A stretch of DNA of 6,386 bases from a virus (Duplodnaviria > Heunggongvirae > Uroviricota > Caudoviricetes), in IMG/VR virus record IMGVR_UViG_2529293138_000005, positions 1-6,386 of that record. The stretch is one strand, 5' to 3'. Shown in pieces: positions 2,797-5,760 of the stretch. Positions within the stretch are counted from its first letter, which is position 1; each line of letters starts with the position of its first letter. The position numbers were made by a program, and so were the translations under genes. The notes under the pieces are model-generated. The model saw only the letters and a list, made by a program, of their open reading frames with translations, made no database searches and had not been told where the DNA came from.

Positions 2797-3002
2797 TGGC
2801 TGAAGAGAAAAAAGGCGGTGTTTCGGTGTACATAAGCTCCGACATCGTGGAGGCGCTCAAGGAACGCCACCAGCAGAACGTAAAAGCAGGCATTGCGGCA
2901 GGACTTGATCCACTGGCGATGGTTGAGCCGTCAACAGGCTGGCAGGTGCGCGCCTATTTACGTGCGGCGCTGGGCATGAATCAGACTCATGGGGGTGAAT
3001 AA
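2797..3002 (+). CDS. Hypothetical small protein (68 aa) at the head of the capsid operon; possibly a ribbon-helix-helix-like or scaffold-like protein
   Basis: ATG at 2797 with AAGAGGAA upstream. Stop TAA (3000-3002) shares a base with the capsid ATG (3002-3004). The longer track ORF starting at 2631 would overlap the promoter region and is rejected. Confidence 0.5.
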
Positions 3003-4057
3003 TGGCAGGCAAAGCAACGGCACTTACCACTAATCAGCTTTTCACGTACATGAATCGCGGGGATATTGCGGAATTTAAATTCAGTCCGCTGTTTACCACG
3101 CTGTTTTTCACGAACGTGGCGACATTCAGCACCCAAAACATCATGCTGGATACCCTGGACATTGAAGAAGTCACTATGTCGGCGTTTTGTTCTCCTATGG
3201 TTGGCAGCCAGGTACAGCGCGATAAAGGGTACGAAACCAGCACAATCAAACCTGGCTACATGAAGCCAAAGCACGAAATCGATCCAACAAAGACCATCAT
3301 GCGCATGGCTGGAGAAGATCCGGCACAGCTTAACGACCCTACCTACCGCCGTATGCGCCTGATTACTGGCAACATGCGCCGCCAGATAAACGCCATTAAA
3401 GCGCGCGTGGAATGGCTGGCGGTGAATGCGATAACGACCGGAAAAAACATCATTGAGGGCGAAGGCATAGAACGCTATGAAATCGACTGGAAGATACCGG
3501 GAAAAAACATCATAGAGCAGGCCAAAGGCCGTAAATGGTCCGAGCAGGACAAAGAAACCCACGATCCAATCTATGATATCGAGCTTTATGCGGATCAAGC
3601 AGATTGCCCCGCCAACGTCATGATTATGGGCGCAGAGGTATGGCGCACGTTACGCAGCTTTAAAAAATTCCGTGAACTGTACGATCTTTCCCGTGGTTCA
3701 GAATCCGCCGCAGAACTGGCCTGTAAAAACCTGGGCGAAGTGGTGAGCTTTAAAGGCTATCTGGGCGATATTGCCCTTATCGTCTATTCCGGCAAATATA
3801 CTGACAGCGACGGCACCGAAAAATATTTCCTTGAGCCTGATTTGCTGGTCCTTGGCAACACCAACAATAAAGGGCTGGTGGCCTATGGTGCGATTATGGA
3901 TCAGGAAGCGGTAAGAACGGGCGCAACGCAAAACATGTACTACCCGAAAAACTGGATTGAGGACGGCGATCCGGCGATTGAGTACGTGCAGACACACAGC
4001 GCACCGCAGCCGGTTCCGGCAGATATTCGCAAATTTGTTACCGTCAAAATTGGTTAA
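3002..4057 (+). CDS. Major capsid protein, lambda gpE family (351 aa)
   Basis: Collinear similarity to lambda gpE as recalled: FKFSPLF versus KFKFDPLF, TIKPGYMKPKHEIDP versus FTPGYVKPKHEVNP, DPTYRRMRLI versus DPAYRRRRII, FKGYLGDIALIVYSG versus YKGMYGDVAIVVYSG, LVLGNT versus MVLGNT, YPKNWIEDGDPA versus YPKNWVTTGDPA. Strong SD (GGGGGTGA) before the ATG. Confidence 0.9.
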   Translation: MAGKATALTTNQLFTYMNRGDIAEFKFSPLFTTLFFTNVATFSTQNIMLDTLDIEEVTMSAFCSPMVGSQVQRDKGYETSTIKPGYMKPKHEIDPTKTIMRMAGEDPAQLNDPTYRRMRLITGNMRRQINAIKARVEWLAVNAITTGKNIIEGEGIERYEIDWKIPGKNIIEQAKGRKWSEQDKETHDPIYDIELYADQADCPANVMIMGAEVWRTLRSFKKFRELYDLSRGSESAAELACKNLGEVVSFKGYLGDIALIVYSGKYTDSDGTEKYFLEPDLLVLGNTNNKGLVAYGAIMDQEAVRTGATQNMYYPKNWIEDGDPAIEYVQTHSAPQPVPADIRKFVTVKIG

Positions 4058-4068
4058 CGGGGGATTCT

Positions 4069-4404
4069 ATGGACACTCCATACATTGAGTTATTTGCAGG
4101 CAGTCAGCAGGTATCCACGACACTGGTACATTTTGCCGCTGATGCTGGCGTTATTCAGGAATTTACCCCGCTGATGCTGGCGGACAATGGCGAGTTTAAG
4201 CCGTGGGATGGTCAGGAATCTGGCAAGGCTGTTTATCTGACTTCGTACCCAGTGGACACGTCAACGCAGAAATCAGCACAGTGTTACAAGACGGGGATAT
4301 TCAATATTGCCGCCGTTAACTGGCCTGAGAGCGTCGACACCGACGTGAAAAAATGCGCCGCCTTTGCGGGTTCTGGCGTATCCGTTCAGCCGCTGGCGCG
4401 ATAA
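4069..4404 (+). CDS. Head decoration protein, lambda gpD family (111 aa)
   Basis: Similarity to lambda gpD as recalled: TPLMLADNGEFKPWDG versus TPLMLDTSSRKLVAWDG, and YKTGIFNIAAVNWPESVDTDVKKCAAFAGSGVSV versus [44 protein letters not shown] upstream. Gene order E then D is the reverse of lambda (D then E). Confidence 0.85.
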   Translation: MDTPYIELFAGSQQVSTTLVHFAADAGVIQEFTPLMLADNGEFKPWDGQESGKAVYLTSYPVDTSTQKSAQCYKTGIFNIAAVNWPESVDTDVKKCAAFAGSGVSVQPLAR

Positions 4405-4478
4405 GCAGGGGGAACGATGGCAGAAACCCAGGCGATGACGGCGACATCGATCGCATACTGAAAACCATCTGAGACAAG

Positions 4479-4500
4479 GCCGGAGAAATCCGGCTTTTTT
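4479..4500 (+). terminator. Rho-independent terminator after the decoration gene, immediately upstream of cosQ
   Basis: Stem GCCGGA, loop GAAA, stem TCCGGC, then TTTTTT. Differs from the terminator at 2572-2593 by a single loop base. Confidence 0.7.
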
Positions 4501-4572
4501 GCGGGTCCTTTCCGGCGATCCGACAGGTTACGGGGCGGCGACCTCGCGCGTTTTCGCTATTTATGAGCCTTT
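4501..4572 (+). other. Lambda-type cos site 1 (cosQ-cosN), rightward orientation; cosN GGGCGGCGACCT at 4533-4544
   Basis: GCGGGTCCTTTCCGGCGATCCGACAGGTTACG, then GGGCGGCGACCT, then CGCGCGTTTTCGCTATTTATGAG. This is near-identical to the lambda right-end/left-end junction as recalled (...ACGGGTCCTTTCCGGTGATCCGACAGGTTACG | GGGCGGCGACCTCGCGGGTTTTCGCTATTTATGAAAA...). Confidence 0.8.
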
Positions 4573-4574
4573 TC

Positions 4575-4651
4575 AGGTTGGTGGTGGTGGTTTTGTTGTT
4601 CGCTGTATCTCTATGAATAAAAAGGGAAAGATAACCACAAAACACCAACCT
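4575..4651 (+). repeat. cosB-like region of cos 1: inverted repeats around an A-rich spacer, unlike lambda R sites
   Basis: AGGTTGGTGGTGGTGGTTTTGTTGTT (4575-4600) and AACCACAAAACACCAACCT (4633-4651). The 9-bp cores AGGTTGGTG (4575-4583) and CACCAACCT (4643-4651) are exact reverse complements. Lies between cosN and the terS start, where lambda carries its Nu1-binding sites. Confidence 0.4.
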
Positions 4652-4692
4652 GAAGCATTAACTAAGTGTGGGTATTGATGAAATCGCACCTG

Positions 4693-5220
4693 ATGAATAA
4701 AAAAACCATGGCGCAAAGCTGCCGTGTAAGTGCTACAGCGTTCGACAAGTGGGGAGTGACTCCCGTTGAACGTAAAGGCCGTGAGGCGTTTTATGATGTT
4801 GCCAGCGTGATAGACAATAGGGTTAACAATGCAATTAACCAGGTTACAAACGACAAAGGCGATATTGATGATGATGAACTTTTACGCGTAAGAATCAGAT
4901 TACTGACAGCACAGGCGGAGGCGCAGGAGCTTAAAAACGAGCGCGAACGCGGCGACGTGATTGATACAGGTTTTTGCCTGTACGCGCTTTCAAAGCTGGC
5001 GAGCCAGATTTCTTCAATCATGGACAGTTTGCCGCTTACCATGCAAAGGCGCTTCCCGCAGATTACTCCCGCTATGCTGGATGGGCTTAAAAGGGAAGTG
5101 GTTAAAGCCTGTAATGCCAGTGCCACAGTTGCCGACAACCTACCGAAGATACTGGCTGATTACCTGATGGAAACTACCGGAGACGTACCGGAGAAGTTGC
5201 TACAGAAGAAAGTCGAGTAA
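4693..5220 (+). CDS. Terminase small subunit, lambda Nu1-like
   Basis: C-terminal half collinear with lambda Nu1 as recalled: LTAQAEAQELKNERE versus LTRAQADAQELKNARD, GFCLYALSKLASQISSIMDSLPLTMQRRFPQ versus AFCTFVLSRIAGEIASILDGLPLSVQRRFPE. The N-terminal putative DNA-binding region (MNKKTMAQSCRVSATAFDKWGV) is divergent. Start ambiguous: GTG 4666, ATG 4678, ATG 4693 or ATG 4708; 4693 chosen because it aligns with the Nu1 N-terminus. No large terminase ORF follows. Confidence 0.85.
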   Translation: MNKKTMAQSCRVSATAFDKWGVTPVERKGREAFYDVASVIDNRVNNAINQVTNDKGDIDDDELLRVRIRLLTAQAEAQELKNERERGDVIDTGFCLYALSKLASQISSIMDSLPLTMQRRFPQITPAMLDGLKREVVKACNASATVADNLPKILADYLMETTGDVPEKLLQKKVE

Positions 5221-5246
5221 CAGACGCGCAATTATTGAACAAAACT

Positions 5247-5450
5247 GAGAAACGACATGAAAGCGTCATAAATCGCCATTTTAGATGATTACCGTGTCGT
5301 TTCTTTTTATTGTGTATCTATTTAAAAACAAATAGTTATGTTCGAGAATTACCGACATGCTTTTTCCAGAAAAATTTTCATAAACAGATAAAAACCGCGA
5401 GGTCGCCGCCCCGTAACGGGCCATAATTCCAGGAAGGACCCGACGACACC
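5247..5450 (-). other. Lambda-type cos site 2 in inverted orientation (cosN AGGTCGCCGCCC at 5400-5411, i.e. GGGCGGCGACCT on the minus strand), with lambda-like R-site inverted repeats
   Basis: Reverse complement of 5343-5411 reads GGGCGGCGACCTCGCGGTTTTTATCTGTTTATGAAAATTTTTCTGG..., resembling the lambda left end (GGGCGGCGACCTCGCGGGTTTTCGCTATTTATGAAAATTTTCCGG). GAAACGACA (5249-5257) and TGTCGTTTC (5295-5303) are exact inverted 9-mers resembling lambda R-site cores as recalled. The cosQ-like side (5412-5450) is only partly lambda-like. Confidence 0.7.
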
Positions 5451-5475
5451 AGACAATCAGAACATCGGGAACACA

Positions 5476-5760
5476 ATGACAGAAGCCGAACTACTGAAAG
5501 TAATCTGCCGTATTACCGGAATCAGCCAGACAGCAGGCAAACAGGAGGCCACGCAGCCGGACAGCGTGATAGCCGAAAATTACGCGCGTGTGGTGGCTGA
5601 GGTGATGCGCCGTGATGGTATTGAGCTTAACGGCGTGGATATGCGCGACATACGGATCAGAGTTCTGGAGTTGTTGTCATATCGTCGCCGCGTGGAGATG
5701 TATCGGGAGAGCGAGAAAAAGACTTACCAGTGGAAGAAACCGGAGCGGCTGCGTACGTAA
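5476..5760 (+). CDS. Hypothetical protein (94 aa) immediately beyond cos 2
   Basis: ATG at 5476 with GGGAA about 8 nt upstream. No recognisable motif. Arg/Glu-rich C-terminus. Confidence 0.4.
   Translation: MTEAELLKVICRITGISQTAGKQEATQPDSVIAENYARVVAEVMRRDGIELNGVDMRDIRIRVLELLSYRRRVEMYRESEKKTYQWKKPERLRT

Follow-up and report, generated by a model that had tools for sequence, protein, structure and literature searches.

The window analyzed here, a stretch of 6,386 nucleotides from the IMG/VR virus record IMGVR_UViG_2529293138_000005, carries a small terminase gene, terS, between two inverted cos sites. This locus is the packaging module of a cos-type phage-inducible chromosomal island (PICI) of the EcCICFT073 family, with the arrangement cosQ-cosN-cosB1, terS and, in inverted orientation, cosB2-cosN-cosQ (Table 1). 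The encoded small terminase subunit (TerS) is a full-length member of the Nu1 family, and no gene for a large subunit (TerL) accompanies it. Judged from sequence comparisons, the island TerS probably reads cosB1 and recruits the TerL of a helper phage to cosN1, with cos2 acting as an entry site for the helper's own holoterminase. The best evidence for such a change of specificity is provided by natural chimeras, in which related islands have exchanged cosB together with the DNA-binding domain of TerS.

The packaging module and its host island

Open reading frame and family searches identified a row of co-directional genes in the window, encoding a DUF4222 protein, a RepA/AAA_25 helicase, a single-stranded DNA-binding protein (SSB), a capsid protein, a decoration protein, TerS and a protein of 94 amino acids. 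The whole window is about 90% identical to E. coli chromosomes and represents the right part of an island of approximately 11 kb. On contigs encoding an identical TerS, the complete island lies between roxA and phoQ and reads int, alpA, ash, DUF4222, repA (RepA/AAA_25, 465 amino acids), ssb, capsid (Phage_cap_E), decoration (HDPD), terS and the 94-amino-acid gene; related islands are inserted at allC, narP, mdtJ and yejO. An integrase, alpA, a replication module with origin, few morphogenetic genes, the lack of tail and lysis genes, and specific attachment (att) sites place the element among the Gram-negative cos PICIs of the EcCICFT073 family. In EcCICFT073 itself, homologues of the capsid and decoration proteins are encoded and two cos sites are present (PMC6092414).

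As in the Nu1 family, a cos site precedes terS, but no TerL gene follows downstream and, thus, the locus is not a phage terminase operon. The first-pass annotation had already pointed to the missing large terminase in the window and to a satellite with its own TerS and cos. Both the island context and the full loci bear this out, as TerL is likewise absent from all nine examined islands reaching the integrase (among them L001, L002 and L006-L011; related islands are designated by L numbers throughout).

Domains of the small terminase

Assignment of the 180-amino-acid protein to the Nu1 family is based on a match to Pfam Phage_Nu1 (PF07471; E = 4e-23, 82.3 bits against a cutoff of 30), which covers residues 33-149 only, and on a match to PHROG_57 'terminase small subunit' (2.8e-51, residues 1-173), in agreement with the initial prediction of a Nu1-like TerS. 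A GTG codon at 4666 offers an alternative start. Overall identity amounts to 34% with lambda Nu1 and to 46.9% with N15 gp1, the best phage match. By alignment, residues 1-50 or so are predicted to form an N15-class winged helix-turn-helix (winged-HTH) domain, residues 51-95 a central helical region and residues 96-165 a part homologous to the TerL-binding part of Nu1, whereas residues 166-180 constitute a tail found in PICIs only, as the last 15 residues reach past the end of every aligned phage TerS.

In the DNA-binding domain (1-50), identity of the window TerS is 36% to lambda, 56% to N15, 28% to PhiR5_1 and 26% to a second PICI TerS, type B (L017). The corresponding values are 33%, 33%, 51% and 51% in the middle region (51-95) and 41%, 43%, 59% and 100% in the C-terminal region (96-165). 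The first-pass annotation had described a conserved, lambda-like C-terminal half behind a divergent N-terminal domain. With respect to lambda Nu1 this description is weakly true, but neither half is what it was taken for. The N-terminal domain is not novel and is predicted to be of the N15 class, its recognition helix reading SATAFDKW versus SVQAFDKW in N15; the C-terminal half, as far as alignments can tell, belongs to a PICI-specific lineage with PhiR5_1 as its closest phage relative.

Exchange of cosB and the DNA-binding domain

The type-B TerS (194 amino acids; L016 and L017) combines N-terminal two-thirds of the lambda/PhiR5_1 class with a C-terminal part that is identical to the window TerS, here termed type A, from VIDTGFCLYALSK onward. 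Upstream of its gene lies a matching PhiR5_1-type cosB (CATGTCGGTA...GTGTCGTAACTGA). Comparison of types A and B hence shows, at the level of sequence, that a single PICI-specific C-terminal domain is retained by the islands, while cosB and the DNA-binding domain are swapped together as a block. Such a joint exchange of cosB1 with this domain suggests that DNA and protein form a cognate pair. Laboratory hybrids between lambda and 21 and between lambda and N15 were built in the same manner and are viable (PMC4669245).

In another island, L006, the terS slot between two inverted cos sites is occupied by a 146-amino-acid homologue of RppC (match to 6HLK at 1.7e-32), which matches the TerS profile in the DNA-binding domain only. 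The specificity swap proposed by the first-pass annotation is therefore retained in modified form: the modular exchange and the shared Rpp slot support it, while the novelty of the N-terminal domain and the lambda-like C-terminus, on which it had also been built, do not stand.

With regard to the partner enzyme, identity of the C-terminal 70 residues of TerS tracks identity of the N-terminal 60 residues of TerL among phages. For lambda and N15, values of 80% (TerL) and 81% (TerS) are obtained, followed by 57% and 50% for lambda and PhiR5_1, and 48% and 29% for lambda and Gifsy-1. No phage in the collection has a TerS C-terminal domain more than 59% identical to that of the window, PhiR5_1 being the closest, and assignment of a helper from the TerS C-terminus was dropped for this reason.

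The first cos site

The cosQ-cosN-I2 part of cos1 (4503-4571) is almost identical to lambda in the alignment. The adjoining cosB1 differs from lambda, as had been noted from the letters alone, and contains a perfect 12-nt inverted repeat upstream of terS, TTCAGGTTGGTG (4572-4583) and CACCAACCTGAA (4643-4654). Of 200 dinucleotide-shuffled versions of the window, three contained a perfect inverted repeat of at least 12 nt with a loop of at most 100 nt; for repeats of at least 10 nt, three were observed against a mean of 0.46 in the shuffles. Exact matches to AGGTTGKTG are found only at the two arms of the 12-nt repeat. The left arm falls within the proposed R3-equivalent of cosB1, which sits where R3 is found in lambda (bp 50-65) and N15 (bp 48-59), and the right arm within the proposed R2-equivalent, roughly at the lambda R2 position (bp 110-125) and in the same orientation. 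In cos1 numbering, bp 42-70 read CAGGTTGGTGGTGGTGGTTTTGTTGTTCG, and an inverted copy (reverse complement CTTCAGGTTGGTGTTTTGTGG) is located at bp 104-124, near the lambda R2 position.

The cosB1 repeats (AGGTTGGTG), placed where lambda has R3 and R2, resemble the N15 site R3 (GAGGTTGTTGTT; bp 48-59), which is critical in that phage and is accompanied by an accessory inverted copy inside gene 1 (PMC4669245). A remote rR2 of the N15 kind within terS was considered and rejected, as only one-mismatch matches (4968 and 5133) were found, no more than expected by chance. Across 13 type-A islands TGGTGGTTTTGTTGTT and ACACCAACCTGAA are invariant. The cosB1 segment is conserved and always adjoins terS. 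The perfect 12-nt repeat was set aside as the whole binding site, since its left arm varies in relatives in which these two elements do not. Taken together, the cosB1 repeats are a family feature at the place where TerS sites are expected, the assignment of R3 being tentative.

Between cosQ and cosN of cos1 the spacer (4517-4526) is lambda-identical in the window (GCGATCCGACAGG), while it reads GCATATGGACCCG in L008, which is about 99% identical, and in other relatives. This difference looks like a small recombinational patch.

The second cos site

The second cos lies on the minus strand, inverted relative to cos1, with which it forms a 72-nt imperfect inverted repeat. All of its R- and I1-like sites are found at lambda positions and in lambda orientations, and AGAAACGACA (5248-5257) and TGTCGTTTCT (5295-5304) form a perfect 10-nt inverted repeat at the R1 and R2 positions, so that the lambda-like character of the cos2 repeats, a further observation of the first-pass annotation, is confirmed by alignment. 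The I1-like segment contains a match with one mismatch to the consensus of integration host factor (IHF) at 5326-5338. Among phages, the cos of Escherichia phage PhiR5_1 is nearest (82% over 150 nt). Other islands that share this terS have CAGATCC(G/T)TTCT in each of the three cos2 R elements, a motif corresponding to the cosB class of Gifsy-1 and phage SerU-LTIIb; the TerS of Gifsy-1 is annotated as phage-21-like. The cos2 of the Rpp island L006 is of N15 type, with GGTTGTTGT at R3-, R2- and R1-like positions, and in L025-L028 cos1 and terS are present and cos2 is absent. Hence, cos2 is a mosaic across the family (L001, L002, L006, L017, L021-L028), being lambda/PhiR5_1-like in the window, 21/Gifsy-1-like elsewhere and missing in some islands. 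By these comparisons cos2 is a genuine phage-type cos, optional in the family and represented by at least two of the classical specificity classes.

Prevalence, inversion and selection

The type-A module was found in approximately 555 (about 10%) of 5426 complete E. coli genomes, 550 having it colinear with the right flank and 5 in inverted form. In the same genomes, 44 copies of the module were counted for the RppC type of L006, the only Rpp type covered, and the type-B module is present in 16. The commoner natural solution may therefore be an uncharacterised, full-length satellite TerS of the Nu1 type. The five genomes with the inverted form (e.g. L030 and L031) represent at least three different chromosomal contexts, and terS is annotated in them on the strand opposite to the capsid genes. 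L016 and L017 differ in the same respect: they are 100% identical except for the 962 bp between the cosN sites (5815-6776), which are inverted, with breakpoints inside the shared core CCCGTTACGGGGCGGCGACCTCGCG. Cutting at both inverted cos sites could release a fragment with two equivalent cohesive ends, which could be religated in either orientation; recombination across the core of about 24 bp is an alternative origin.

Pairwise ratios of nonsynonymous to synonymous substitution rates (dN/dS) among type-A terS genes range from 0.11 to 0.27 in both halves, and the gene is under purifying selection. In the PICI lineage, TerS's C-terminal half accumulates more amino-acid change than the N-terminal half. 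Hundreds of intact variants of about 180 amino acids (178-181) are found in the database; in L002, terS is frameshifted.

Proposed mechanism and alternatives

During growth of a helper phage, the island TerS would bind through its N15-class winged-HTH domain to the island-private cosB1, that is, to the R3-like site at 4572-4600 and the inverted R2-like site at 4633-4654, and its C-terminal domain would recruit the helper's large terminase. The recruited enzyme would nick the lambda-type cosN1, and concatemers would be packaged rightwards, ending at the next cos1 (cosQ and cosN). The helper's own holoterminase could use cos2 without the island TerS, which would give the island a private and a shared entry point. 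The terminases of lambda and 21 package N15-cosB DNA about 10^-4 as well as their own (PMC4669245), hence helpers of this kind should not be able to read cos1 without TerS from the island. From the comparisons described above, we infer binding of TerS to these cosB1 sites, binding of TerL and independence from the helper TerS. Direct action is expected because the window TerS keeps the end homologous to the TerL-binding part, which is absent in Rpp.

Several results weigh against this reading. Of the two approaches suggested by the first-pass annotation, pairwise alignment gave the domain-by-domain identities above, whereas structure prediction contributed little. The AlphaFold2 model, based on a 19-sequence alignment, has a low mean predicted local distance difference test score (pLDDT) of 64 and was used for secondary structure only (strand-a1-a2-hairpin-a3, then long helices; pLDDT 71-78 for the strand-a1-a2-hairpin-a3 part at residues 5-57), and a Foldseek search against the Protein Data Bank gave nothing at E<=0.001, with weak MerR-type matches only (E>1). 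Likewise, a sequence search of solved structures returned no meaningful match, and none to the DNA-binding domain of lambda Nu1 (1J9I). On the DNA side, most type-A variants show 0-2 mismatches in the outer left arm of the inverted repeat, and L002 shows more. The (GGT)n tract (4580-4592) differs by 6 nt between close relatives (e.g. L021 versus L022), shifting the spacing from cosN to TTGTTGTT. As a change of 3 bp in the cosN-R3 spacing is severe in lambda (PMC9026076), the exact R3 of cosB1 is uncertain. A search with the IHF consensus found no IHF-like site in cosB1, and a consensus scan of 4380-5500 found no sigma-70 promoter-like site for terS. Finally, among phages the C-terminus of TerS covaries by class with the N-terminus of TerL, and with identities of only 41% to lambda and 59% to PhiR5_1 the island C-terminus does not point to a particular TerL partner; lambda gpA may not be bound by the island TerS.

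Given its position in the same island family and the same slot as Rpp, which is itself thought to be derived from a TerS (PMC6739421), the window TerS might instead act in the manner of Rpp. It would then form mixed dimers or oligomers with the helper TerS, via the DNA-binding or the central oligomerisation region, and the hybrid would bring TerL to cos1 and block phage packaging. The central region is 51% identical to PhiR5_1 Nu1 and shares the segment AQA(D/E)AQELKN with phage TerS. This mode of action is nevertheless unlikely: the window TerS retains the entire C-terminal region homologous to the TerL-binding part, its short-wing N15-class domain is unlike the lambda-class domain mimicked by Rpp, and sequence searches detect no similarity to RppC (16% identity in the DNA-binding domain; no match to 6HLK at E<=1 among solved structures).

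A further possibility is that TerS serves mainly as a decoy which titrates the helper TerL (or TerS) and blocks phage packaging, the island being packaged via cos2 by the helper terminase. For such a role it could be argued that cos2 is a complete phage-type cos whose cosB occurs in two classical helper classes (lambda/PhiR5_1-like and 21/Gifsy-1-like), and that both the PICI-only tail and the faster evolution of the C-terminal half would be in keeping with an arms race against TerL. Islands L025-L028, however, carry cos1 and terS without cos2, which cannot therefore be the sole packaging route, and the conservation of cosB1, always next to terS and exchanged together with the DNA-binding domain, likewise speaks against a mere decoy, making it quite improbable. 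The apparent repA and ssb frameshifts of the window copy and the frameshifted terS of L002 might suggest an inert relic, left over after the island had captured the left end of a lambdoid or N15-like prophage. This explanation can hardly be maintained in view of the dN/dS values and the many intact variants, and the architecture is moreover kept at several att sites and in other genera, with no phage in the collection carrying this C-terminal domain.

The preferred reading, a TerS reading its private cosB1 on behalf of a helper TerL, may be extended further. The region cos1-terS-cos2 might constitute a self-contained, exchangeable and invertible specificity cassette, in which TerS hijacks TerL without helper TerS and the two cos sites act as private and helper-type entry with terminase-dependent flipping; this would be the ancestral state, and Rpp would have been derived from it when the TerL-binding end was lost. 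Such an extension is tentative and, as a whole, rather doubtful. If true, it would explain the origin of Rpp and the presence of two cos sites in EcCICFT073, both left open by Fillol-Salom 2019 (PMC6739421).

Other features of the window and related islands

The terminator-like hairpin ahead of cos1 was read directly from the sequence and is kept in all aligned relatives; the consensus scan of 4380-5500 for promoters and terminators missed it. The 94-amino-acid gene follows terS or rpp in all loci compared, and its product has no Pfam match. Of the virion genes, the island encodes a gpE-family capsid and a gpD-family decoration protein (3002-4404) and no portal, protease or scaffold. In EcCICFT073, interference is not relieved by deletion of the capsid and decoration homologues (PMC6092414). 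Many relatives have an additional 137-amino-acid gene between the decoration gene and cos1 (PHROG_1999, weakly similar to the C-terminal part of a head maturation protease), which is deleted in the window (4405-4475) between two ACGATGGCA repeats, its last 55 nt or so remaining.

Table 1 Features of the packaging module and adjacent genes in the window (positions are those of the window; bp are counted within the respective cos)
Feature	Position	Strand	Basis or remark
Lambda gpE-family capsid protein	3002-4057		Family search
gpD-family decoration protein	4069-4404		Family search
Terminator-like GC-rich hairpin (GCCGGA-GAAA-TCCGGC) with T6	4479..4500	+	Read from sequence; end of capsid/decoration operon, directly before cos1
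cosQ-like segment and left cosN flank of cos1 (GGGTCCTTTCCGGCGATCCGACAGGTTACG)	4503..4532	+	29/30 bases as lambda right end
cosN1, 12-base cohesive end GGGCGGCGACCT	4533..4544	+	Identical to lambda bp 1-12
Right cosN flank/I2-like segment (CGCGCGTTTTCGCTATTTATGAG...)	4545..4571	+	Near-identical to lambda bp 13-34
Proposed R3-equivalent of cosB1: TTCAGGTTGGTG, (GGT)n tract, TTTTGTTGTT	4572..4600	+	cos1 bp 40-68; R3 position of lambda/N15
Proposed R2-equivalent of cosB1, inverted copy AACCACAAAACACCAACCTGAA	4633..4654	-	cos1 bp 101-122; lambda R2 position
terS, Nu1-family small terminase (180 amino acids)	4678..5220	+	Pfam and PHROG matches
cos2 R1-like site (CATGTCGTTTCTCAG)	5245..5259	-	cos2 bp 153-167; position, orientation and TGTCGTTTC core as lambda R1
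cos2 R2-like site, inverted relative to R1 and R3	5292..5306	+	cos2 bp 106-120; lambda R2 position
cos2 I1-like segment (ACATAACTATTTGTTTTTAAATAGAT), candidate IHF site	5316..5341	-	cos2 bp 71-96; aligns with lambda I1
cos2 R3-like site (AGCATGTCGGTAATTCTCG)	5343..5361	-	cos2 bp 51-69; cosN-anchored alignment with lambda and PhiR5_1
cosN2 GGGCGGCGACCT	5400..5411	-	Alignment with lambda
cosQ-like segment of cos2 (GGGTCCTTCCTGGAATTATGGCCCGTTACG)	5412..5441	-	Kept in all islands having cos2
94-amino-acid gene	5476..5760	+	PHROG_1561 (unknown function), 1.4e-50

A likely replication origin is located at 1684-1870, downstream of repA, where AAAGTGAGG-like iterons recur and CCCCTCACTTTT (1737-1748) and AAAAGTGAGGGG (1767-1778) form a perfect inverted repeat of 12 nt. 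Single-base insertions break repA in the window (stop at 450-452; 465 amino acids elsewhere) as well as ssb (140 amino acids elsewhere), and could be real decay or homopolymer sequencing errors. Compared with the roughly 99% identical islands that encode an identical TerS (L008 and others), a 9-nt deletion is also present. The positions of these differences are 434 and 443 (repA), 2322 (ssb), 2754 and 2612.

In one island type, a lambda-like prophage harbours the island inside its capsid gene, a helper-embedded configuration that has been described for PICIs (PMC10111431). The island of L014/L015, which lies within the major capsid gene of such a prophage and is followed by a capsid-gene fragment, FI, FII, Z, U, V, G, T and H, encodes a third PICI TerS type of 170 amino acids with an N15-class DNA-binding domain and has a single cos.

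Relation to known packaging systems

The published model for cos PICIs of E. coli is Rpp, which depends on the helper TerS. Rpp heterodimerises with this protein and redirects the helper terminase to cos1 of EcCICFT073, where two functional cos sites are present (PMC6739421, PMC6092414). According to Murialdo and Feiss (2022), Rpp lacks the C-terminal 30-40 TerL-binding residues, so that the helper TerS is needed as a bridge (PMC9026076). That PICIs may encode a TerS is in itself an already recognised idea: TerS figures in general terms among the core components of PICIs (PMC10085698), and some Gram-negative PICIs were described in 2018 as having terS homologues (PMC6092414). For a TerS of the Nu1 type in Gram-negative cos PICIs, a literature search turned up no experimental study. 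Natural A/B chimeras are ready reagents for mapping DNA reading and TerL binding onto the parts of a cos-type TerS. Rules of packaging specificity are also of practical value, since O157 and other pathogenic lineages are among the carriers of these islands and PICIs are under development as engineered delivery vehicles.

The closest comparison is with Rpp itself (RppA/B/C). Both are found in the same island family and in the same slot between inverted cos sites, with lambda-type cosQ/cosN and a private cosB, the N-terminal TerS-like winged-HTH domain of Rpp has a predicted counterpart in the window TerS, and both presumably aim at redirecting helper packaging to the island. Rpp, however, comprises 139-154 amino acids, has no TerL-binding C-terminus, dimerises through an unrelated C-terminal coiled coil and needs the helper TerS, whereas the window TerS, with 180 amino acids and a Nu1-type C-terminus, is a full-length Nu1 homologue with an N15-class, short-wing DNA-binding domain in place of the lambda-class domain that Rpp mimics.

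Resemblance to the TerS of Staphylococcus aureus pathogenicity islands (SaPIs; TerS_S) is functional only, in that a satellite-encoded small terminase is paired with the helper TerL. SaPIs use headful (pac) packaging, an unrelated TerS family and a separate interference protein, Ppi; the present island, in contrast, is of the cos type, encodes a Nu1-family TerS and has no recognised Ppi. The satellite P4, like the present island, is packaged from cos and relies on the terminase of its helper P2, but has a helper-type cos and is not known to have a cos of another type or a TerS of its own.

Phage N15, with gp1 and cosB-N15, offers the nearest phage TerS, a similar recognition helix and an R3 (GAGGTTGTTGTT) resembling the CAGGTTGGTGGT of the island, and an inverted second site near the lambda R2 position is also known from the Monarch prophage group (PMC4669245). 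In N15, however, gp1 is followed by its own TerL, the C-terminus of gp1 is lambda-like (81% over the last 70 residues) and cosN is two bases off lambda, whereas the island has lambda cosN, a PICI-specific C-terminus and no TerL. With regard to modularity, the nearest counterparts are the hybrids lambda-21hy51 and lambda-N15hy4, in which cosB and the 5' part of terS are exchanged as a block and the 3' part is matched to TerL. These are engineered phages with a TerL of their own, whereas the island chimeras are natural and reside in a satellite.

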